Positions 3,625 to 63,968 of a stretch of DNA of 64,000 nucleotides are shown here, piece by piece. The position numbers and the translations under genes were made by a program. The notes beneath the pieces are model-generated. The model had not been told where the DNA came from. It ran no database searches and saw only the letters and a list, made by a program, of their open reading frames with translations. Source of the stretch: an uncultured Eubacteriales bacterium (lineage in GTDB: Bacteria; Bacillota_I; Bacilli_A; RFN20; UBA1709). Within the stretch, counting starts at the first letter, position 1; each line of letters starts with the position of its first letter. The stretch is taken from positions 13,903 to 77,902 of the forward strand of contig CAYIYR010000002.1 in assembly GCA_964367815.1 (NCBI GenBank), in the 5' to 3' direction.

Positions 3625-5256
3625 ATGAAAGACACAAAGTTTATTTTTATTACGGGTGGAGTTGTATCTAGTTTAGGAAAAGGAATAACATCTTCCTGTA
3701 TTGGACGATTACTTAAGGAACGTGGCTTGAAAATCTTTATGCAGAAATTTGATCCATATCTTAACTATGATCCCGGGACAATGTCTCCCTATCAACATGG
3801 CGAGGTTTTTGTCACTTGTGATGGAGCGGAAACCGATTTGGATTTAGGTCACTATGAGAGATTTACTAATGAGTTAGTAACTAAAGATTCTAATGTTACT
3901 ACGGGAAAAATCTACTCAAGTGTTATCGATAAAGAACGCAAAGGTCATTATAATGGTGGGACTGTTCAAGTCATTCCTCATATTACTAATGAAATAAAAG
4001 GTTATCTTCATAGAGCGAAAGCAACTGGAGCAGATGTTGTCATCACCGAAATTGGTGGGACAGTAGGCGATATTGAATCACAACCATTTTTGGAAGCTAT
4101 TAGACAAGCTAGAAGAGAGTTTGGCTTTCATAATACTTTTTATGTTCATGTTACTTTAGTACCATATCTTCATAGTGCTCATGAGTTAAAGACAAAACCG
4201 ACCCAACATAGCGTTAAAGAGATGAAGGGATTAGGAATTCAACCCGATATGATTGTTCTGAGAACGGAAATTCCCGTACCAGAAGAGCATAAACAAAAAA
4301 TCGCCTTATTCTGTGATGTTGATGCCAAAGCAGTCATTGAAGCAAGAGACATGGGAATCGTTTATGATTTGGTTAATGAGTTTCAAAGACAAGGAGTCGA
4401 TGATTTCATTTGCAACCATTTTGAGTTAGAAACACCAGCAGCAGACCTTACCGATTGGAATAAAATGATTAATTGGATTAAGCATGCGAAAGGCAAAGTT
4501 ACTATTGGTTTAATTGGCAAATATATTTCGCTTAAAGATGCCTATATTTCAGTAAATGAAAGTTTAGCCCATGCTGGTTTCTTCTATGGTAAGAAAGTCG
4601 AGATTGTTGGGATAGAGTCAGAAACAATTACGGAAGCCACAGCGGATGAACTATTGGGAAATCTTGATGGTATTTTAGTTCCTGGCGGTTTTGGTGTGCG
4701 GGGCATTGCGGGAAAGATCATTGCATCACAATATGCCCGAGAGCATAAGATTCCTTATTTTGGCATCTGCTTAGGCATGCAAGTAGCCTTGATTGATATT
4801 GCTCGTAATGTTGCTCATCTTGAAGATGCTGATTCCACGGAGTTTAATGCCCAAACACCTTATAAGATTATTGATTTGTTGCCCGACCAATTTACAGGTA
4901 TAAATATTGGTGGAACCTTAAGGTTAGGAAACTATGAATGTCGAATTGATCCGAGTTCAAAGCCGTTTTCTTATTATAAGAATAGAGAGTCGGTTCAAGA
5001 AAGACATCGCCACCGGTATGAATTTAATAATGAATACAAGGAGCTTCTTCACCAAAATGGCGTGAAATTTATCGGTATTAATCCCCAAGCCAATCTAGTT
5101 GAAATGATTGAACTAGAGGGACATCCTTGGTATGTAGCGTGCCAATTCCATCCTGAATTTAGATCTAGACCTAATCATCCCCATCCTTTATTTAAGGGAT
5201 TTATTGATGCGGCGATTAAATATAAGCAAGAAAAAAACAAGAAGGCTTCAGTTTAA
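3625..5256 (+). CDS. pyrG: CTP synthase
   Basis: The N-terminus FITGGVVSSLGKGITSSCIGRLLKERGLKIFMQKFDPYLNYDPGTMSPYQHGEVFVTCDGAETDLDLGHYERF is diagnostic. A C-terminal glutamine amidotransferase domain is present. Confidence 0.95.
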   Translation: MKDTKFIFITGGVVSSLGKGITSSCIGRLLKERGLKIFMQKFDPYLNYDPGTMSPYQHGEVFVTCDGAETDLDLGHYERFTNELVTKDSNVTTGKIYSSVIDKERKGHYNGGTVQVIPHITNEIKGYLHRAKATGADVVITEIGGTVGDIESQPFLEAIRQARREFGFHNTFYVHVTLVPYLHSAHELKTKPTQHSVKEMKGLGIQPDMIVLRTEIPVPEEHKQKIALFCDVDAKAVIEARDMGIVYDLVNEFQRQGVDDFICNHFELETPAADLTDWNKMINWIKHAKGKVTIGLIGKYISLKDAYISVNESLAHAGFFYGKKVEIVGIESETITEATADELLGNLDGILVPGGFGVRGIAGKIIASQYAREHKIPYFGICLGMQVALIDIARNVAHLEDADSTEFNAQTPYKIIDLLPDQFTGINIGGTLRLGNYECRIDPSSKPFSYYKNRESVQERHRHRYEFNNEYKELLHQNGVKFIGINPQANLVEMIELEGHPWYVACQFHPEFRSRPNHPHPLFKGFIDAAIKYKQEKNKKASV

Positions 5257-14812: not shown

Positions 14813-15060
14813 TCTTAACCACGATTAAGAAAAGATAAGTAAATAGTCAATAGAAAATTTATTTAGAAAAACAAGAGGAAGTATTAAAAACCCTCTTCTT
14901 TTTATGAGAAAGAGGAATATATTATCTATATCACTAGAAAAATAAAAGCGAATTGTCTTTACTTTATTAATTTAAAGGTGGTAAAATGAAAGTTGTAATC
15001 TTTCGATGCGACATTGATAGATTATAAAGTAACGTAAATTTACGGAAGGGAAAATTTAAG

Positions 15061-15261
15061 ATGAAGGGCAAAGTCAAGATGTTTAGCAAAGAAAAAGGTT
15101 TCGGATTCATTCACACAGAGAATGGTCAAGATGTCTTTTTCCACTACTCCGAACTCCAAATGGAAGGCTTTAAGACTGCTGAAGTCGGCGATGAAGTAGA
15201 ATTCGATCTACAAGAATCCGATAGAGGTCCAAGAGCTTCTAACATTCGCAAAGTTGGATAG
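15061..15261 (+). CDS. Cold-shock protein (CspA family)
   Basis: KGFGFI RNP1 motif and VFFHYS RNP2-like motif in a 66-aa protein. Confidence 0.92.
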   Translation: MKGKVKMFSKEKGFGFIHTENGQDVFFHYSELQMEGFKTAEVGDEVEFDLQESDRGPRASNIRKVG

Positions 15262-15276
15262 AAAAAACAAGTAAGA

Positions 15277-15301
15277 AACCACTTCGGTGGTTTTTTCTTT
15301 G
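15277..15301 (+). terminator. Rho-independent terminator
   Basis: AACCAC-ttcg-GTGGTT followed by TTTTTCTTT. Confidence 0.8.
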
Positions 15302-15367
15302 TCTTTTTGCTATAATAGGTAATTGTAAAAACTAATGACACTATCTTGATAGTGGGAGGTATAGTCT

Positions 15368-27054: not shown

Positions 27055-28011
27055 GTGGATGTAGTGAAAAGAAAAGTTGGATTAGTATTAGGTGGTGGCG
27101 GAGCAAAAGGTGCCTATCAGATTGGTGTCTATAAAGCGCTACGTGAATATAAGCAGATAGAACAAATCGTGGCTTTCTCTGGAACGTCAATAGGGGCTCT
27201 TAATTTGGTTTTGTTATCTTCTAAGGAAATTGATAAGGCTGAGCGAATTTGGTTAAATTTGAGCCGAAAAAACATCTTAACGTTGAAAAACTGGAAAGAA
27301 TATTTATCTTTCAAGAATTTTAGTGTTCTCTCAAGAAGGGGAATGTTAGAAATCTTTAGTAGTGATATAGATTTTGATAAAGTCTCTAAATGTGAATATC
27401 CATTATATGTTGGCGCGACAAATACAATTGAAGACTGTGGAGAGATATTTAAGTTGAATGGAATGGAATCTAATAAGATTATTGATTGTCTTTCAGCTTC
27501 AAGTGCAATCCCAAAGATATTCGCACAAGTATTTATTAATGGCAAAAAGTATTGTGATGGCTTTCGTTATTTAAATGTTCCCATTCAATGCCTCATTGAA
27601 GAGAAGTGTAACTTCCTATTCACCATTCCCTTAAGTCCTTATCTAGCACCTAAAGATGGTGATTTCCCAGACACCACGATTATCGACTTTAATGAGAAGA
27701 TTTTCGCTAATCTCAAAACTTGGGAAGGGACACTTGGTTTTGATGCCAAGATAGTTGAGGAGAGAATGAATCTTGGTTATAAGAATGCCATGAAATTATT
27801 GGAATTCTTAAGAAAAGAAGGAGTCATTACTGTCACCTTCAAGGATAAAGTCCGTTATTTCTTCGGCAAGATCACTGGTCGGAACAAGAAATTCAAAAAG
27901 TACTATTCTATGGAAGACGTGAATATAATTAAGGAACTACCAAAACCTAATGATGAGGTAGAACAAACCATAGAAGAGGGATCGACCACAGATGGGACAA
28001 AGACTAGTTGA
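27055..28011 (+). CDS. Patatin-like phospholipase
   Basis: GGGGAKG oxyanion motif and GTSIG nucleophile elbow. GTG start. Confidence 0.8.
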   Translation: MDVVKRKVGLVLGGGGAKGAYQIGVYKALREYKQIEQIVAFSGTSIGALNLVLLSSKEIDKAERIWLNLSRKNILTLKNWKEYLSFKNFSVLSRRGMLEIFSSDIDFDKVSKCEYPLYVGATNTIEDCGEIFKLNGMESNKIIDCLSASSAIPKIFAQVFINGKKYCDGFRYLNVPIQCLIEEKCNFLFTIPLSPYLAPKDGDFPDTTIIDFNEKIFANLKTWEGTLGFDAKIVEERMNLGYKNAMKLLEFLRKEGVITVTFKDKVRYFFGKITGRNKKFKKYYSMEDVNIIKELPKPNDEVEQTIEEGSTTDGTKTS

Positions 28012-30630: not shown

Positions 30631-30711
30631 AATATAGTCACTCCTTTTTCAGTTAAGTATATGCACTTTAGATTTAAAACTTGCTTAATTGTTTGTTTTG
30701 AAGCATAATAT

Positions 30712-30850
30712 TTACGGGAGTTCACCGAAGTGGACTGAGAGTATTCCTGATACGGGAATAGACCGGACCTGATCTAGGTAATGCTAGCGGAGGGATTTAG
30801 TGATAAACCTTTCTTAATCTTTGCTAGCCAAAGATTTTTCTTTTTTGGAG
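30712..30850 (+). promoter_or_regulatory. TPP riboswitch with an intrinsic terminator
   Basis: GGGAG...CUGAGA...ACCUGAUCUAGGUAAUGCUAGCGGAGGGA, followed by CTTTG-ctagc-CAAAG and a T-run. Confidence 0.85.
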
Positions 30851-30859
30851 GATAATTAG

Positions 30860-31441
30860 ATGAATAAGAGTATTAGAGTGATGTGTGAAACAGCAATTTT
30901 TGTGGCTTTAGCTGTTTTGCTGGATTGGTTATTTAAGATGATACCTTTCTTAGATATGCCGGCCGGTGGGAGCCTTTCTATTGCGATGCTTCCCATTATC
31001 TTGATTGGCTTCCGCAATGGAACAAAATGGGGGATTATCGGTGGCCTGTGTTACGCGGTAATCAATTTCTTTCTCGACGGTAGGTTTTGGCATTTAGGTT
31101 CAATCTTTTTTGACTATATCTTTGCTTTTGGTGTCCTGGGATTAACGGGATTATTCAAAAAGAAAGGGCAAAAAGTTGGTTGGTATGTATTCGCAATCGT
31201 ATTTGTTTGCTTTCTTCGCTATCTCTGTCATAGCTTAAGTGGAGTTTTGTTTTTTGCTAGTTATGCCGAAGATTGGTTTATAGAGAATCCTAACTCATTC
31301 GCAGTTGGTTCGGCCTTTCTTTATAGTTTTGTAATCTATAACCTTCCTTATATGCTTGCTAGTACTGTTGCAACTGTCATTATCGCTTTAGGATTATATC
31401 GTTTCATCTATCCAAAAACTAATGTAAATAAAGCTGTGTAG
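30860..31441 (+). CDS. thiT: ECF transporter S component for thiamine (ThiT)
   Basis: 193-aa ECF-S architecture directly downstream of the TPP riboswitch. Confidence 0.75.
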   Translation: MNKSIRVMCETAIFVALAVLLDWLFKMIPFLDMPAGGSLSIAMLPIILIGFRNGTKWGIIGGLCYAVINFFLDGRFWHLGSIFFDYIFAFGVLGLTGLFKKKGQKVGWYVFAIVFVCFLRYLCHSLSGVLFFASYAEDWFIENPNSFAVGSAFLYSFVIYNLPYMLASTVATVIIALGLYRFIYPKTNVNKAV

Positions 31442-35765: not shown

Positions 35766-35977
35766 TGAAGCAAGAAATAGAAGTAGTATTTGGTGAGCGT
35801 GTTCGGGTTTTGAGAAAACTATTGAACATTTCTCAAGATGAGTTAGCTTTCAGAGCTGACTTACACCGCAACTATATTTCCGATGTAGAATGTGGAAGAC
35901 GCAATGTTTCATTGAAAGCCATTGAAAAGATTGCTAATGGGTTGAATGTTCCCATTGATACTTTATTTGTTAAATAG
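35765..35977 (+). CDS. XRE-family helix-turn-helix transcriptional regulator
   Basis: The LRKLLNISQDELAFRADLHRNYISDVECGRRNVSL HTH_3 pattern. Its start overlaps the whiA stop. Confidence 0.8.
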   Translation: MKQEIEVVFGERVRVLRKLLNISQDELAFRADLHRNYISDVECGRRNVSLKAIEKIANGLNVPIDTLFVK

Positions 35978-35985
35978 GAGAGTAT

Positions 35986-47233: not shown

Positions 47234-48747
47234 TGACGATTCTGCTAGTATCTTTACTTACTATACCAGTCTATTATCGCTTAGCCTATCAGCACACAAA
47301 ATTGTTTCAACAACAATTCTATAACCATCGACGTTATTTTTTGGGATTAAGAGATAGTATTAAATTTAGTTTACTTGATTTCCTACCCATTCTCATAATC
47401 ATTCCTTTTCTTGTGCTTCAGCCAAAACTTCTCTATGTCAGTGTCATGTTGTTTGCTATTTATGTGGTAGAAGTTGTTAAACGCAAACCAGAAATAATCA
47501 AACTGAAGTTTACGGCCCGTGTTTATCGCTTATTGATAGCACTAGCTGTTGTCATCTTTCTTATGATTGGAATACCCTCCTATTTTTATCCTCCCATCTA
47601 TTATTACTTGGTTTTGGGGATATATCTTTTGTTTCCTCTTTTCTTTGCTCTGATAGCTTACCTTATGAAACCATTAGAAGGAAGTATAAAGAATAAATAC
47701 CTTAAGAAAGCGAAAAAGAAGCTGGCAGAAATTGAACCAATCTTTGTCGCTATTACGGGAAGCTATGGCAAGACATCAACTAAAGAATGGGTAAGTGAAA
47801 TTCTCTCTAAGAAGTATAAAGTACTGGCCACACCAAAATCATATAATACGATGATGGGTATAACGAAAACAATCAATGAGAGTCTGCAAAAAGATCATCA
47901 AGTATTAGTAATTGAAGTCGGAGTAGACAAAGTCGGCGGTATGGATGAATTTAAAAAACTATTTACTCCTAATTTTGTGATAATCACAGGAATTGGTCCT
48001 CAGCATCTCAAAACATTTAAATCGTTAGATAATATTGCGAAAGAGAAAATGAAACTTGCAAGTTGGGTTGATAAAAACGGGGTGATTATTCTCAATGGTG
48101 ATTGTTCTGAACTAAGAGATGCTCCTGTGGGTGTCACTCAGCGTCTTTATTATGGTTTCAAGGAAAACAATGCTTATACGATTAAACTAGGAAAGAAGCG
48201 CAAGGACATGACCCGTTTCTCACTTAATAATTCCGACTTTGAAACCGGGGTTATTGGTGATCACTTTCTTCTTAACATCGCAGCCAGCATTATTCTGGCG
48301 CGGCGATTAATTATCCCAGAAAAGTTGATAGTGGATGCCGTGAAGGGATTATGTAATGCAGATCATCGGCTGAAGCTAATTCAAAAAGAAGATTATCAAA
48401 TCTTAGATGATTCCTATAATTCGAATCTTCATAGTTTTCGGTGTGCGATTAAGACCTTGAGTTCTTTTGCGGGTTATCGAGTATTGATTACGCCCGGATT
48501 AGTTGAACTAGGTGACAATTATTATTCCTATAATTATCAAGCTGCCGAGTTTTGTGTGGATAAGGTGGATTATGTTATTGTTGTTGGTAATATGAAACCA
48601 TTTAGAGATGCATTTGAGAACAAGAAATACGAAGAATATGTCTTTGTCGATGATTTCAAGTCAGCGATGGCTCATCTGCAAAAGATTAAGCAAGTAGGAA
48701 TGACAGTTCTAATTGAGAATGATTTGCCGGATATCTATCTGCGCTGA
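47233..48747 (+). CDS. Mur ligase family protein (MurF-like) with an unusual N-terminal multi-pass membrane domain of about 150 aa.
   Basis: The central P-loop VAITGSYGKTSTKE and Mur ligase middle and C-terminal regions are present. The N-terminus has about 5 hydrophobic helices. Confidence 0.6.
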   Translation: MTILLVSLLTIPVYYRLAYQHTKLFQQQFYNHRRYFLGLRDSIKFSLLDFLPILIIIPFLVLQPKLLYVSVMLFAIYVVEVVKRKPEIIKLKFTARVYRLLIALAVVIFLMIGIPSYFYPPIYYYLVLGIYLLFPLFFALIAYLMKPLEGSIKNKYLKKAKKKLAEIEPIFVAITGSYGKTSTKEWVSEILSKKYKVLATPKSYNTMMGITKTINESLQKDHQVLVIEVGVDKVGGMDEFKKLFTPNFVIITGIGPQHLKTFKSLDNIAKEKMKLASWVDKNGVIILNGDCSELRDAPVGVTQRLYYGFKENNAYTIKLGKKRKDMTRFSLNNSDFETGVIGDHFLLNIAASIILARRLIIPEKLIVDAVKGLCNADHRLKLIQKEDYQILDDSYNSNLHSFRCAIKTLSSFAGYRVLITPGLVELGDNYYSYNYQAAEFCVDKVDYVIVVGNMKPFRDAFENKKYEEYVFVDDFKSAMAHLQKIKQVGMTVLIENDLPDIYLR

Positions 48748-54774: not shown

Positions 54775-54814
54775 AAACGATTGTCAATTAGTTGGCAAAT
54801 GTAATATACTATCA

Positions 54815-55030
54815 ATGTAAATCGCAAGTGAGAATGAAATAGCAATTAACTTGTTAAGAGAGGATTTGGCTGGTGTGAAAATCCCAAGAAATGCTTAATG
54901 TGCCCTCACTAGAGTTTCTCGGAATTCAGTATGAGAAAACGTATATCGGCGTTAACGAGTAGAGTAGTTATTTCAATATAACTAAGTAGAGTGGAACCGT
55001 ACTCAAGTGCCTCTATGGGCACTTTTTTTG
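54815..55030 (+). promoter_or_regulatory. T-box riboswitch leader with a Cys (UGC) specifier and an intrinsic terminator.
   Basis: AGAGAG GA-motif in stem I. UGC in AAAUGCUU of the specifier loop. T-box-like AGAGTGGAACCGT. Terminator GTGCC-tctatg-GGCAC followed by TTTTTTT. Confidence 0.75.
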
Positions 55031-55044
55031 TGGAGGAAAGAAAA

Positions 55045-57157: not shown

Positions 57158-57769
57158 TTGTATACAACTATTACTGACGATGAATTGATTACTTTGATCC
57201 GCCAAAACAATGCTCAAGCCTATGATTTATTAACAAATCGTTATTGGGTATTTTTATGCCAATGGTTAGATAAGATACTTTACAAGAATACTGATTATTA
57301 TGAAAGAGAAGATGCTTTCCAATGTGGATGGATGATGCTGCTCAGTTGCATCGATAATTACCAATCAGAGAAAGGACTTTTCTACACTTACGCAAAAACC
57401 TGCGTTGAAAGACGCTTAATGTTATTTGTTTCTCAGTATGCCCAAAGAGTTAACACAATCGGCTATTATCCTTTAGATGAATCAGCACAAAATGAAATTG
57501 TATCTCTGCGATTAGCCTCATTATCTTCAGCTGATAACATGCATAATCCAGTTCGCTGCTATCATCTAAAAGAGGAAGTATCAGATATTATGAGTCGTAG
57601 TAATCTGACAACCTTAGAGAAAAGAGTTTTTCTAGCAAGAATGACTGATATGAGTTATGCCGAAATTGCCGAGGCTTTGAATATTACTTTGAAGAAAGTG
57701 GAATATACTCTCAGCTGTGTCAAGCGAAAAGCCCAAGAAAAAAGACCGGGAATGCCGGTCAGTTTATAG
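57158..57769 (+). CDS. sigH: Sigma-70-family sigma factor, probably sigma-H
   Basis: Region 2 and region 4 are recognisable (LSYAEIAEALNITLKKVE HTH). It occupies the conserved cysS-rlmB-sigH-rpmG-secE-nusG locus. Confidence 0.7.
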   Translation: MYTTITDDELITLIRQNNAQAYDLLTNRYWVFLCQWLDKILYKNTDYYEREDAFQCGWMMLLSCIDNYQSEKGLFYTYAKTCVERRLMLFVSQYAQRVNTIGYYPLDESAQNEIVSLRLASLSSADNMHNPVRCYHLKEEVSDIMSRSNLTTLEKRVFLARMTDMSYAEIAEALNITLKKVEYTLSCVKRKAQEKRPGMPVSL

Positions 57770-57794
57770 TCACTTTATAGTGACTTTTTTTTAG
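57768..57794. terminator. Bidirectional terminator between sigH and gltS.
   Basis: AGTCACT-ttat-AGTGACT followed by TTTTTTTT. Confidence 0.8.
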
Positions 57795-59184
57795 CTTTAA
57801 ATTGGCTGCGTCTAATTAGATAAATTATCGCATTATAGACAATAAACATTGCGACTAAGATCCCTAAACAGATCCATTGCAGGGCTGTGCTTCGAGGCGC
57901 ATATCCTAACAAGAGGAGAACGGGGAATCCAAAGGCAATAGCAAACAAACTCTGATAGACTAAGTTATCAGCTGCTGGTGTTTCAAAGTTGGGATCGATT
58001 TCTCGTAATAGAATCATACCTGTACTAGCTGTACCTGTGAGCATTCCAAACATGGACATCATGCCTTGATATTCATATCCTGGCCACAAGAATTTACTAA
58101 CATGTTTTAAATAGACAAAGGTGACAATGGTTCCACCAATTCCTAAGACAATTAATGGTAACCATAGACTCTTCAAATCGGTGATTTCGATAGCAGCAAT
58201 TCCCGCTACGATCATCACATCAAAGAAGAATCCACTAATTCTATTTAGCAGATAATTGCTAGGATATTTATGTGTCATTAATTTAACCTTTTTGTTAAAA
58301 TCAAAGATCTTTTTGAGGCCGACAGCAAAGATTGTACCAAGTAAGAAGTTAAAGCCCCAAATCAAAGGCTTAACCGTATTAACGCCGAAATTTCCCAAGT
58401 AATTATTATCACATAAGAATGTAATTCCGGCCATGGCAAGATAAGTAATGAAATATACAAAGACCACCAATACAATTTGAATGGTGAACTTGTCAATCGA
58501 GTCACTGAGTGGTAATTCGTTCTCGGTTGAGACAACTTCTGTTTTGGCGGCCACTGTCTCTTTGTTAAAACCATCTTTTCTAACTAAACCTTTTCTTTTT
58601 AAAATGTTTAGATAGATAACACCTGCAATACAGGCAACTAAGAAACCAAGGGCAGCGATTGATAAACCAAAGCTAGCTCCACCAATGAACCCATATTGTG
58701 TTTCATAGACTGTTCCCCATGATAGTGCTTGACCAGGACCTTGGCCAAAGCCCAAAGGTAACAATAAACCAGCAGCAGGAATTAATCCTGTGATAAAGGT
58801 TGCCATCACAATAGTGATTACCAAACCAACAATACCTTGAATAATATAGGAGTTGACAGTAACAATACCAGTGTTAATTATGGTAGGCGTTTTTGCTGCA
58901 CCTTTAGCTTTGTTGGTATCCTTTAAGGCGATAGCGATAAAGCCTAATGCTAAAGCATGATAGGTCACAACCGACATAAAATCAACATCAATTAGACTGT
59001 CAAACCAAGGCCAAACTGATTTTAATATTAATAATAATAAACCAGAAATAACCGAAGTTGGTAAGAGGGTTTTCCGAATAAAGGGAATTTTCCTTCGCAA
59101 TGAATTACCCACTAAGATAGCGACACCGATAATGAAACATTCGATTAAGATTGTCCAGACACTAGATTCCCAAAAATTCGTCAT
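57775..59184 (-). CDS. gltS: Sodium/glutamate symporter (GltS family)
   Basis: The GltS-like blocks GFGQGPGQALSWGTVYETQYGF and GMLTGTASTGMILLREIDPNF. Confidence 0.65.
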   Translation of the reverse strand: MTNFWESSVWTILIECFIIGVAILVGNSLRRKIPFIRKTLLPTSVISGLLLLILKSVWPWFDSLIDVDFMSVVTYHALALGFIAIALKDTNKAKGAAKTPTIINTGIVTVNSYIIQGIVGLVITIVMATFITGLIPAAGLLLPLGFGQGPGQALSWGTVYETQYGFIGGASFGLSIAALGFLVACIAGVIYLNILKRKGLVRKDGFNKETVAAKTEVVSTENELPLSDSIDKFTIQIVLVVFVYFITYLAMAGITFLCDNNYLGNFGVNTVKPLIWGFNFLLGTIFAVGLKKIFDFNKKVKLMTHKYPSNYLLNRISGFFFDVMIVAGIAAIEITDLKSLWLPLIVLGIGGTIVTFVYLKHVSKFLWPGYEYQGMMSMFGMLTGTASTGMILLREIDPNFETPAADNLVYQSLFAIAFGFPVLLLLGYAPRSTALQWICLGILVAMFIVYNAIIYLIRRSQFKAKKKSL

Positions 59185-60370
59185 TAGTAACTCCTCCTCT
59201 TAAATTTGTTAAGTGATAGTATATTTGCATATATTTGACAGGGTTGAAATCTTCTTCGCCAACAACTTGATAGATTTCATTGTTTGAGAGATAGAAATTC
59301 ATTTTGTGTTTGCCAAGACATGCGATGGCTTTAATATCTTCTATTGAATAAACATATTTTTTGCTTGTTCCCTCTATCGTAAGATTGAGATTATCAATAA
59401 AGATATTACCTTTACTAATAAATCGTTTTCTCTTACCAATAATTGATTGTTTAAACACGATATTCTTATCACCAATTCCTAAATTAGCGAAATATTCTTC
59501 ATCGGTTTTACAGATGGTTTCTTCTTGATATCGATACCAATCGTATACGGTTGCGAAGGTGAATGCAGGATCATCTGATTTAAATGTTAAATCTTGTTGA
59601 TATTCAACTTCAAGTCCACAGTTATTACATTTAACCATATTTCCATGGGAAGATAGTGTAGAATAATGACCGCATTTCGGACAAATATAGAGAACCCGTT
59701 CTAGCTTCTCGGCTCGAATATCGCTAATTGATGATTGTTGCGTTTCAAATGGTGAGACATCAAGTTTTGTTTTAATCTCTAATAACAATTCCTCTTGATT
59801 CATCTGTGCTGCTATTTCTTTAGGGATAACTTCATTAACTCGACAGGTCATCTGGGCTTTTCTAACTTTACGTGCCCACCTTGGTTCAACCGCATATCCA
59901 CCAATAATGTTGATGATAACAACATCAATCTTTAAAACCTTTGCTAGTTTGGCGATACTCATATCAACACGACCAACTTTTCCACTATAGGTTCGATTGC
60001 CTTCAGGGGTAATAGCGATATTGCCCCCCTCTTTAGCAACTTTTAAGCAGTCCCTAACCGCACCCAAATCCTTAACTGACTTGCTTTTGGGAATGGGCTC
60101 GACCATAAATTTAATTGCTTTTGAACTAATTCCATTCGAAAACAAATCTTCGGTGGTCATATAATAGATTTGATCTTTGAAAACAAGACCAATCATGAAC
60201 TGATCCATACAGGTTTGATGATTATATAGAATCAAGCAGGGAGCTTTGATATCTTTGGCGGGCACAATGGTGCAACCATATTTTTTCTTAAGAAAGACAG
60301 TGAAAAACGGGCGAACTAAATCAGTGAATACCCGATGTCTTTTCTTAATCCAAGTTTTGCTTTTATCCAT
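59162..60370 (-). CDS. Lysophospholipid acyltransferase (PlsC-like) with a C-terminal Cys4 zinc-ribbon extension.
   Basis: NHQTCMD (the HX4D motif) and ITPEGNR (the PEGTR motif). The extension carries CPKCGH...CNNCG. Confidence 0.65.
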   Translation of the reverse strand: MDKSKTWIKKRHRVFTDLVRPFFTVFLKKKYGCTIVPAKDIKAPCLILYNHQTCMDQFMIGLVFKDQIYYMTTEDLFSNGISSKAIKFMVEPIPKSKSVKDLGAVRDCLKVAKEGGNIAITPEGNRTYSGKVGRVDMSIAKLAKVLKIDVVIINIIGGYAVEPRWARKVRKAQMTCRVNEVIPKEIAAQMNQEELLLEIKTKLDVSPFETQQSSISDIRAEKLERVLYICPKCGHYSTLSSHGNMVKCNNCGLEVEYQQDLTFKSDDPAFTFATVYDWYRYQEETICKTDEEYFANLGIGDKNIVFKQSIIGKRKRFISKGNIFIDNLNLTIEGTSKKYVYSIEDIKAIACLGKHKMNFYLSNNEIYQVVGEEDFNPVKYMQIYYHLTNLRGGVTNDEFLGI

Positions 60371-60522
60371 AATATCTCCTAATCTAAACGCTTATATTCT
60401 AATGCTATTTAACTAATTGTGCAATAAAACAGATACCATAAATTTACTATTTTCTTAAAAAAGATAGTGATTAAGAAAAAGCATTCACTGGCAAATTGCC
60501 CTGTGAATGCTTTCTTCAGTCT

Positions 60523-61197
60523 CTAAATTAGTTCAAGCCCATTTATCTTTAATTTGAAATTAATAGATAGTTTTGCTGCTGATTGCCGACATAAGTTCAT
60601 TCTTGTTAGAAATATTTCAAAATAATCCATAACTGGAGTGATCTCGGTATCAATGGTTAAATCGAGTGTCAATGTTCTTGCTTTTTTATCAATATCCACT
60701 TTGCTGTCAACAACAGCGTAGTTAACACGATCATGAATATTGAAATCATAAGTTAGAGGATTTCTAACTCTAGTTCTTCTAACATCTGTTTTATCAGCGA
60801 GAATCAAGGCAGCCGATATGGCATTGACTGGATATGCTGCTGATTCATCATGATTACCAATTGCGGCGATGATAACAGCGATGTCTTTAGGATCCATCTC
60901 TAGATCTGTTAAAATGGAAAAGGCCATAATCGCACCACTTTGACCATGGTTAACTCTGTTAACTGCATTGCCAATATCATGCATATAAGCAGCAATTTGT
61001 CCAAGATTAATCTCTCTTTGCGAATAGCCAAACGCTGATAGAATATCTTTAACTTGTTTCGCACATTTCATTACATGACCAAATGAATGATCAGTGTATC
61101 CCATGGAAGCCAGCGATAAATCAGCTTGAGTAATATATGTTGCAATTTCTTTGTTTTCTTTAATATCTTTATATGTAAATTCTTTATAAGCCATAGT
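60523..61197 (-). CDS. HD-domain phosphohydrolase
   Basis: HSFGHV...MHDIG HD motif. Start at the ATG behind AAAGGGGAG. Confidence 0.75.
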   Translation of the reverse strand, partial: TMAYKEFTYKDIKENKEIATYITQADLSLASMGYTDHSFGHVMKCAKQVKDILSAFGYSQREINLGQIAAYMHDIGNAVNRVNHGQSGAIMAFSILTDLEMDPKDIAVIIAAIGNHDESAAYPVNAISAALILADKTDVRRTRVRNPLTYDFNIHDRVNYAVVDSKVDIDKKARTLTLDLTIDTEITPVMDYFEIFLTRMNLCRQSAAKLSINFKLKINGLELI

Positions 61198-61275
61198 ATC
61201 TCCCCTTTCGCTTACCATATATTACCATTATTTGCATCTATTATCTATTCTTTTACTCTTTTTCGAAAAAATTAG

Positions 61276-61304
61276 TTGCTATTTCTAAAAAACGAGCATA
61301 TACT
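61276..61304 (+). promoter_or_regulatory. Sigma-A-type promoter of the unidentified small RNA
   Basis: TTGCTA, a 17-nt spacer, then TATACT. Confidence 0.5.
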
Positions 61305-61310
61305 ATCTGT

Positions 61311-61510
61311 AAGTGGTGAAAGCCACTCGATTACTATTTGCCAATACGTAGAGACTATGAACTATAAATGGCTCAGATGGTGAAGAAAATTAGTACTGAC
61401 TAATTGGTGGAACCTAGAGCAGTTCGCTTATCGTTTATGGATTAACTTACAGTATTGGTGAATCGTTTCATCAGTAAACTAACGGTCTTCGGGCCGTTTT
61501 TATTTTTCTT
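61311..61510 (+). ncRNA. Candidate stand-alone small RNA of about 200 nt (identity unknown; 6S-type or novel), ending in a UUCG-tetraloop terminator.
   Basis: A promoter sits upstream. The terminator AACGGTC-UUCG-GGCCGTT with a T-run sits at 61481-61510. The downstream gene has its own promoter at 61551-61579. Confidence 0.4.
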
Positions 61511-61550
61511 TATTATACGAATCATGTTCATTTGATATGCATAGATTTAG

Positions 61551-61579
61551 TTGCCATGCTTACATGCGAGTAGTAAAAT
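61551..61579 (+). promoter_or_regulatory. Sigma-A-type promoter for the amidohydrolase gene
   Basis: TTGCCA, a 17-nt spacer, then TAAAAT. Confidence 0.5.
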
Positions 61580-61605
61580 ATAGACAAAGGTTATAGGTGA
61601 TAATT

Positions 61606-62856
61606 ATGTATAACAAATTGCGGGAGACGATAGACGCATTACCAATGGTTGATGATCATAACCATCTGGGTTTTACTGTCGCCAATGATGAGATGCCAAA
61701 AGAGGCTAGAGTAGGGTTTAGGGATGCTTTCGCAACCCCCAAACAATCTTCATCTGGCTTCGCTTATCAAGAAAATCTTCATCGGGAAGCGTACATTAAG
61801 ATTTATGGATTGAAGAAGGAAGAAATTGATGATGAGGCCTATCGAGCTAAAAACAGTGCGATTTATGAGAAAGCTCGGACCGAAGATATTGATAAGACAC
61901 TAACAAAAATAATGGAAGTTGCCAATGTTGAGAAGGTCTTAACTACCTGTTATTTACCAAATAAGTTAAAACACTTCTCTAAACTAGGGTATTTACCATT
62001 AACAGACTTTTTGATGTTTCCTTTTAATAATGATTATTTACGGGAAAGACAGATTTCCGCTCAGTTTGTGAACCAATACGAATATATTCTTCACGAAGCC
62101 ATGCGAGATTATCATTTACCAGTAGATTATGATTTCAATGATTATTTATCATTTGTGAATCGCGTCTTAGATGATTTTCATCAAAAAGGTTATGTCGGTT
62201 ACAAGTTCTTATTGCCGTATGTTCGCAGCCTAAGAATGGATAAAGAGGAACTCACTGATGGACCAAAGTTATTTAAGGAAGCCAAAGAAGGCAACATTAA
62301 GTCTTACCATCGTTTCCAAAACCTTATTGGTTGGCTCATTGCAAGAAAAGCTGCTCAAAATGGCATGCCAATTCAAATACATACGGCTTTGATTGATCCT
62401 AACTTAGATTATGCGGATCCCTTAGGCTTAGAACCATTTCTCCATGATGCGGAAACCTATCAAGCTAAGATTGTAATGCTTCATGTTGGTTATCCAACCT
62501 TTAGTCAAGCATTGACTATTTCAATGGCTGCGAATTTATTTACGGTTAACAATCTTTATCCTGAGATTTCTGGTCGTTTCATTTTTGGTAATCATCCCAA
62601 GATTGTTGCGAAAGAACTGCGGAGATTTCTTGACTTTCCTATTCTTTGGAAGAAGATCACTTTTGGCAGTGATGCCTTAACCGGCGATCGTTATTTCTAT
62701 ACCGGTTCAAGAACGGGGCGCGATGCAGTTTACTATTGTCTAGAAGGTATGATTGATGATGGTATTGTTAGCGAAGAAGTTGCAATTGGAATTGCGAAAG
62801 ATATTCTTCGTAATAATGCGATTCGTTTGTATAATCTTGATATGAAAATTTTGTAA
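61606..62856 (+). CDS. Amidohydrolase-2 (metal-dependent TIM-barrel hydrolase) family protein
   Basis: The DDHNHLG HxH metal motif near the N-terminus and a C-terminal His/Asp pattern. SD AGGTGAT. Confidence 0.55.
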   Translation: MYNKLRETIDALPMVDDHNHLGFTVANDEMPKEARVGFRDAFATPKQSSSGFAYQENLHREAYIKIYGLKKEEIDDEAYRAKNSAIYEKARTEDIDKTLTKIMEVANVEKVLTTCYLPNKLKHFSKLGYLPLTDFLMFPFNNDYLRERQISAQFVNQYEYILHEAMRDYHLPVDYDFNDYLSFVNRVLDDFHQKGYVGYKFLLPYVRSLRMDKEELTDGPKLFKEAKEGNIKSYHRFQNLIGWLIARKAAQNGMPIQIHTALIDPNLDYADPLGLEPFLHDAETYQAKIVMLHVGYPTFSQALTISMAANLFTVNNLYPEISGRFIFGNHPKIVAKELRRFLDFPILWKKITFGSDALTGDRYFYTGSRTGRDAVYYCLEGMIDDGIVSEEVAIGIAKDILRNNAIRLYNLDMKIL

Positions 62857-62860
62857 TATG

Positions 62861-62890
62861 AATGAAGGGTAGCCCCCTTCATTTATTTTG
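62861..62890 (+). terminator. Rho-independent terminator
   Basis: ATGAAGGG-tagcc-CCCTTCAT followed by TTATTTTG. Confidence 0.75.
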
Positions 62891-63941: not shown

Positions 63942-63968
63942 AGGCATCTACGGATGCCTTTTTGTTTA
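63942..63968 (+). terminator. Rho-independent terminator
   Basis: AGGCATC-tacg-GATGCCT followed by TTTTTGTTT. Confidence 0.8.

Follow-up and report, generated by a model that had tools for sequence, protein, structure and literature searches.

The question raised by this locus is whether the 408-nt gap between two divergent genes of an uncultured member of the Bacilli holds the gene of a small RNA. The gap was analysed together with the whole 64-kb stretch of DNA in which it lies (the window). It is bounded by a gene for an HD-domain phosphohydrolase (60523–61197, minus strand) and an amidohydrolase gene of the Amidohydro_2 family (PF04909; ATG 61606 to 62856, plus strand), the latter with a ribosome-binding site, AGGTGA, read from the sequence at 61593–61598 (plus strand). 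Both genes were assigned by Pfam and flank the RNA divergently, as the original prediction had it; they are given as context, and regulation of the second by the RNA is not implied. For a compact genome the gap is long, with just 13 intergenic regions in the window reaching 150 nt. The best match to the NusG of this organism among species representatives was 78% identical, and the neighbouring genomes are MAGs from gut and digesters. All sequence features listed in the original prediction were found where it had placed them. They are read here as a small non-coding RNA, lineage-specific and transcribed on its own, that would span about 195 nt (about 61311–61507, plus strand) and run from a promoter-like site (P1) to a UUCG terminator, the downstream amidohydrolase gene being driven mainly by a second promoter-like site (P2); a probability of roughly 0.45 was assigned to this reading. 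The transcript, its ends and any function are what we infer from the sequence features and the predicted fold described below.

Terminator and promoter-like sites

The strongest evidence for a real short transcript of the plus strand comes from a predicted intrinsic terminator, AACGGTC-TTCG-GGCCGTT, with a 7-bp stem and a UUCG loop (stem 61481–61498, with T-tract to 61508, plus strand), which was identified by a strict terminator scan and by folding. The T-tract TTTATTTTT stands directly 3' of the stem, and pairing of AGUAAA with UUUAUU was able to lengthen the stem in the predicted fold. With the strict criteria (stem ≥ 6 bp with ≥ 4 G-C pairs, loop of 3–8 nt, ≥ 7 T among the 9 nt that follow), 16 terminators were found in the window and none in five shuffles, so the strong UUCG terminator originally described at this position stands well above chance. 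Fourteen of the 16 immediately followed a gene or the THF riboswitch aptamer, one lay in the leader of a cysS T-box and the last is that of the RNA. A strong intrinsic terminator was present directly 3' of nusG (63942–63959, plus strand). Among the ORFs of the window, no plus-strand gene was found upstream that could use the terminator at 61481–61498: the three genes preceding the RNA are read from the minus strand, and a plus-strand terminator at 57769–57793 serves the sigH-like gene ahead of those three. Since a strict terminator stands here without an upstream plus-strand gene, a transcript starting inside the intergenic region is the simplest reading.

A consensus-like promoter and a separate one for the downstream gene had both been proposed, and both could be located. 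P1, a sigma-A-type site TTGCTA-17-TATACT (61276–61304, plus strand), matched the consensus at 9/12 positions, with a predicted start near 61311, and lies 177 nt upstream of the terminator stem; P2, TTGCCA-17-TAAAAT (61551–61579, plus strand), matched at 10/12. Promoter-like hexamer pairs were at chance density in the window (7 observed against 7.9 ± 2.6 in shuffles), so that P1 has no statistical support by itself. The 10-nt context of its −10 hexamer, ATATACTATC, had only three exact copies in the window; the second belongs to the promoter of the cysS T-box leader at 54804, identical to P1 in this context, and the third lies about 30 nt upstream of the start of a GltS-like gene. P1 and P2 had in common an 11-nt extended −35 element, TTAGTTGCYAT (61272–61282 and 61547–61557, plus strand), with no further exact copy anywhere in the window; it may serve both sites as an operator or extend the promoter, and P1 and P2 may be under common regulation.

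As the terminator precedes the next gene and points the same way, the RNA could instead be a cis-acting 5' leader of the amidohydrolase gene, in which case transcripts from P1 would mostly end at the terminator and read-through would be controlled by a factor, for example an RNA-binding protein recognising the UGGUGRA repeats described below or a ligand binding the rod of the predicted fold. This was considered unlikely, though a serious rival. It gains from the two other terminators in the window that do not stand at gene ends, both of which are in cis-regulatory leaders (THF riboswitch and cysS T-box), from the length of the intergenic region in a compact genome, and from TTAGTTGCYAT, which hints at co-regulation of the two sites. 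The distances argue the other way: 100 nt separate the end of the T-tract from the ATG of the amidohydrolase gene, with the 10/12 site P2 in between, whereas the tail of the cysS T-box terminator ends about 14 nt before the start codon, and genuine leader terminators in the window are far nearer their genes.

Predicted fold

The predicted RNA (plus strand, about 61311–61507) comprised a 5' hairpin, an imperfect rod and the UUCG terminator. The 5'-terminal hairpin (61312–61327, plus strand; −7.7 kcal/mol, z −2.95) starts one nucleotide from the predicted transcription start; it is the local hairpin of the original prediction, for which a 6-bp stem closed by a GAAA tetraloop is the better description. 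Both terminal hairpins are thus predicted to carry an extra-stable tetraloop, GAAA at the 5' end and UUCG in the terminator. The rod between them (61329–61473, plus strand) is long and imperfect, with about 50 pairs over about 145 nt, and is interrupted by a 6x6 purine internal loop, in which GAAGAA faces GGUGGA, and closed at its apex by a 7-bp hairpin whose loop is ACUG; hairpin and rod together had 57 pairs, of which 8 were G-U. The sequence element named in the original prediction, AATTGGTGGAACC, was read at 61401–61413 (plus strand). The rod folded at −37.3 kcal/mol on the plus strand and at −23.8 kcal/mol on the minus strand (z −2.62 and −0.90, respectively), so any selected structure would be at the RNA level and on the plus strand. 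For the whole RNA the fold reached −55.3 kcal/mol (z −2.79). The fold z-score is unexceptional, ranking about 12th to 15th among 96 intergenic 150-nt windows of the same sequence. In a second strain (L001, Logan ERR5332651), six differences were found in 2.7 kb, two of them at the 5' end of the RNA (61310 and 61312); with G in place of A61312, the 5' hairpin is closed by G-U rather than A-U at an unchanged predicted stability.

Stronger folds than that of the RNA were found in two other intergenic regions, at 35816–35965 (plus strand, z −3.65; within 35766–35985) and at 15163–15312 (plus strand, z −2.95; within 14813–15367). No Rfam match was obtained at either, and both regions may contain terminators or additional RNA elements.

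When the 5' strand of the rod was removed, the 3' strand was predicted to form local hairpins and the terminator was left intact. No antiterminator alternative competing with the terminator was found by fold prediction, and the test for a generic riboswitch or attenuator was therefore negative, which counts against a leader. With no upstream plus-strand gene, no antiterminator fold and a promoter-like site in the 100-nt gap, the terminated transcript is, as originally stated, not an obvious leader. The missing antiterminator, the gap with P2 and the nearer terminators of real leaders together favour an independent small RNA, with a separate promoter for the enzyme gene.

UGGUGRA repeats and coding potential

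A motif scan of both strands gave, on the plus strand of the RNA, UGGUGAA at 61314–61320, 61378–61384 and 61456–61462 and UGGUGGA at 61405–61411; the exact heptamer thus occurs three times in the 195-nt RNA, and with the one UGGUGGA all copies fall within 150 nt. All four copies in the RNA are on the plus strand, and their predicted structural contexts differ: UGGUGGA lies inside the AAUUGGUGGAACC element and is predicted to be unpaired, and the copy at 61456–61462 is paired in the rod and, with the rod opened, forms a local hairpin with UUCAUCA. Threefold repetition of a 7-mer with at least three different bases occurred in 0.17% of dinucleotide shuffles of the RNA, and some 7-mer was repeated three times in about 3% of real 195-nt windows of this sequence; the whole 64-kb window holds 29 copies of UGGUGRA on both strands. 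The fourfold occurrence in the RNA appears to be an unusual and curious feature. UGGUG is complementary to the common tRNA 3' end CACCA, and GGUGA to the anti-Shine-Dalgarno sequence UCACC of 16S rRNA. A UYCACCA site near start codons was not found in the window, and a literature search on the UGGUGRA motif returned nothing relevant. It is very improbable that the RNA founds a new class of structured RNA in which the four UGGUGRA copies act in trans on a universal pyrimidine-rich partner; such an RNA would stand alone and sense or titrate 30S subunits or the 3' ends of uncharged tRNAs, with T-box-like chemistry outside a T-box.

All six frames were rich in stops, and the longest ORF (35 aa) started from a TTG overlapping the promoter; with none longer than this, the earlier statement that the RNA contains no convincing ORF can be retained. 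A peptide could be had by reading through UGA: an mRNA for a small Trp-rich peptide would run from AUG 61357 to UAA 61480–61482, with two in-frame UGA codons, each after UGG, read as Trp. Three of the four UGGUGRA copies share this frame, the 41-codon frame finishes exactly at the terminator, and TGA is a rare stop in the window (2/50 ORFs). Chances for this peptide were nonetheless rated as slight, because TGA ends two genes plausibly and the long ORFs are intact under table 11, because AUG 61357 is enclosed in the rod of the predicted fold and lacks a Shine-Dalgarno sequence, because no homologue was found in a collection of 5.8 billion proteins at the sensitivity of that search, and because a 41-codon frame free of TAA and TAG is, by our estimate, expected by chance in about 12% of cases at this base composition. 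Ribosome-mediated attenuation through a mini-ORF (MNYKWLRW, with two Trp codons, ending UGG UGA) was rejected, its AUG being buried in the rod without a Shine-Dalgarno sequence and opening of the rod leaving the terminator unaffected.

Stop codons in the 50 ORFs of at least 150 codons in the window were TAA (28), TAG (20) and TGA (2). TGA is used hardly at all and TAG more often than is usual at 36% G+C; the two TGA stops, at 28009–28011 and 48745–48747, look genuine.

Comparison with known RNA families

The Rfam/Infernal scan that the original prediction had proposed was run at the gathering threshold and, for positions 61150–61650, at E ≤ 10; it gave chance matches only (RAGATH-17, Ysr209 and snoR117), all far below their thresholds, and no match to 6S, SRP or any other family. 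SRP RNA, RNase P RNA and tmRNA gave no match in searches with Rfam models or, for tmRNA, with ARAGORN, and the lack of any riboswitch or leader family match in Rfam is a further point against a leader. Elsewhere in the window, a TPP riboswitch aptamer was matched at 30704–30814 (plus strand) with 48.4 bits (E 2e-06), just under the gathering score of 54.3 and upstream of an ORF starting near 30860.

The length of about 195 nt and the largely rod-like secondary structure would fit a 6S RNA or another housekeeping RNA (SRP RNA, RNase P RNA or tmRNA) that has diverged past easy recognition, and the RNA does resemble 6S RNA (RF00013) in its length and mostly double-stranded rod. It differs from 6S RNA in that it has no match to the model and no closing stem or central bubble (neither the minimum-energy nor the centroid fold paired the 5' and 3' ends or formed a large central bubble, the largest internal loop being 6x6) and that it was absent from the loci of relatives that were examined. 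No housekeeping family was matched even at E ≤ 10, and the RNA lies in a lineage-specific insertion with no homologue in the related sequence searched, which makes a housekeeping role unlikely. The 6S, SRP and 'housekeeping sRNA' candidates put forward originally were dropped on these grounds, and such an origin is hardly credible.

A degenerate or atypical T-box, that is, a tRNA-binding RNA, was compared in greater depth, because of short sequence likenesses and because the gathering threshold had let a genuine T-box of the window pass unnoticed. In this reading the T-box bulge, which binds the 3' end of the tRNA, would be represented by AAUUGGUGGAACC, and UGGUGAA would resemble a distal loop. 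A genuine cysS T-box leader is present in the window (54816–55032, plus strand; specifier UGC, bulge UGGAACC, terminator 55006–55023); at 84.5 bits it falls below the Rfam T-box gathering score of 93 and was for this reason missed by the gathering-threshold scan. UGGAACC of the RNA is identical to the 7-nt bulge of this leader, as GGUGGAACC is to its bulge region, and GGUGAAAGCC resembles the Rfam consensus of the Stem I distal loop. Further likenesses to T-box leaders (RF00230) are the UGGUGAA, AGAGA and AGUA elements and the position of an intrinsic terminator ahead of a gene on the same strand, and a semi-global alignment of the RNA to the cysS leader reached a z of about 3 with the promoters included in the alignment. 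Against this, the Rfam T-box model gave no match on the RNA at E ≤ 10 compared with 84.5 bits on the cysS leader, and a covariance model made from the cysS T-box scored the RNA at 3.9 bits and deleted the bulge. What the RNA has of the T-box elements is short strings whose order and spacing do not fit; it lacks a Stem I with K-turn, specifier loop, AG bulge and distal loop in canonical order, a partner for helix A1 and an alternative fold overlapping the 5' arm of the terminator, and the downstream Amidohydro_2 gene (PF04909) is neither an aminoacyl-tRNA synthetase nor an amino-acid gene. With both covariance models, the element order and the missing antiterminator against it, membership of the RNA in the T-box family was rejected, and a degenerate form was given very little credence.

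Two further candidates were also rejected. The layout of promoter, repeated-motif RNA, terminator and protein gene is like that of a ToxI-like Type III antitoxin, but the RNA contains no tandem repeat array, and the Amidohydro_2 neighbour matched no toxin family and nothing in PADLOC. A palindromic repeat of the MITE, REP or ERIC kind was discarded because the RNA is a single copy in the 64-kb window, has no copy in 1.1 Mb of relatives and folds strand-asymmetrically. Short similarities between the RNA and the start region and 5' UTR of the HD gene (repeat families I1 and D1) were at chance level by our estimate.

Trans-acting intergenic sRNAs of Firmicutes with a sigma-A promoter and an intrinsic terminator include SR1 and RoxS of B. 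subtilis. Like them, the RNA is an orphan unit between genes, about 200 nt long, that has a promoter, a 5' stem-loop and a Rho-independent terminator, lacks an ORF and has a narrow phylogenetic range; it differs in having no C-rich seed loop for pairing with Shine-Dalgarno sequences, its predicted exposed elements being purine-rich. Judged by sequence and fold, the RNA does not appear to belong to any known family and is a plausible candidate for an orphan sRNA; it may be the novel regulatory RNA that the original prediction also offered.

Homologue search and genomic context

The original prediction had also called for conservation and covariation analysis in related genomes; the search for homologues found none in the related sequence that was reached. 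When about 1.1 Mb of related sequence was searched with nhmmer, blastn and an RNA covariance model (R1), only the window and the second strain matched, and none of these methods found a homologue of the RNA at the nusG loci of 80 relative species. JGI metagenomes were searched with one pattern, ATGGTGAAGAAN{12,28}TTGGTGGAACC, which gave six matches, all by chance and mostly inside coding sequence; a viral scan for the RNA and a blastn search of phages and plasmids gave no match.

The neighbouring genes were followed in the same way. The HD family is widespread; homologues 91%, 79% and 76% identical have other neighbours, with no homologue of the RNA found beside them, and for the closest (91%) the neighbours differ on both sides. 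The amidohydrolase family is rare (12 proteins, nearest 49% identity), and its homologues elsewhere stand close behind another gene or have a sigma-54 promoter; neither the RNA nor a conserved aptamer was present upstream of six of them. That amidohydrolase homologues do without such an RNA, with sigma-54 promoters instead, also speaks against a leader. In Clostridia-like contigs, Amidohydro_2 homologues were preceded by sigma-54-type promoters, TTGGCATGAAGCTTGCG and TTGGCACGCAATTTGCA (L086, about 3908–3935; L100, about 279–296), and in L086 to L088 a gene for a sigma-54 activator follows the Amidohydro_2 homologue; this arrangement suggests a regulated catabolic enzyme.

Gene order in relatives is cysS, rlmB, sigH-like, rpmG, secE, nusG. 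The interval between the sigH-like gene and rpmG, about 100–150 nt in relatives, holds about 5 kb of inserted sequence here (57775–62885), with a GltS-like transporter, an acyltransferase, the HD gene, the RNA and the amidohydrolase as cargo. Judged from these sequence comparisons, the insertion is lineage-specific and the RNA sits inside it. Such an insertion, absent in relatives, also allows that the locus is a non-functional by-product of recent rearrangement, in which a promoter that is a relic or arose by chance and a terminator that is a relic or acts as an insulator lie in a lineage-specific island, any transcript being functionless. The different neighbours of the closest HD homologue on both sides, the lack of conservation in the sequences searched and a fold z-score unexceptional among intergenic regions agree with such a relic. 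Less easily reconciled with it are the stable fold on the plus strand alone, with 8 G-U pairs included, the two extra-stable tetraloops on the terminal hairpins, a motif repetition seen in just 0.17% of shuffles and the functional placement of every other strong terminator in the window. This explanation was held to be doubtful, rating below the leader, and is the second serious rival.

Discussion

The reading as an independent transcript was considered the most likely of those compared, at the probability of less than one half given above. Sequence prediction alone gives the RNA what an independent sRNA gene would have, namely its own promoter, its own terminator and no ORF. Counted against it were the failure to find a homologue anywhere one was sought, the ordinary fold z-score, the chance level of the promoters, the repeat rate of about 3% in real windows and the two strain differences at the 5' end. 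If the reading is correct, transcription would begin at P1 and stop at the UUCG-capped intrinsic terminator, the RNA would fold into the GAAA-capped 5' hairpin, the long imperfect rod and the terminator hairpin, and the amidohydrolase gene would be transcribed mainly from its own promoter, P2. Stable sRNAs of Firmicutes are usually built in this way, with a hairpin at either end. As a weak guess, the RNA might act in trans by binding a protein, or by pairing with pyrimidine-rich partners, through exposed purine-rich elements; those proposed are the UGGUGRA repeats, the GAAA loop and the internal loop GAAGAA/GGUGGA.

The RNA opens no long-standing question, and its value hinges on the finding of a partner for the UGGUGRA motif. 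If real, it would add one lineage-restricted sRNA for a poorly studied branch of uncultured Bacilli (relatives of RFN20, Erysipelotrichales-like gut and digester MAGs), and it would mean that reduced genomes of this kind still carry orphan RNA genes on recently acquired islands.
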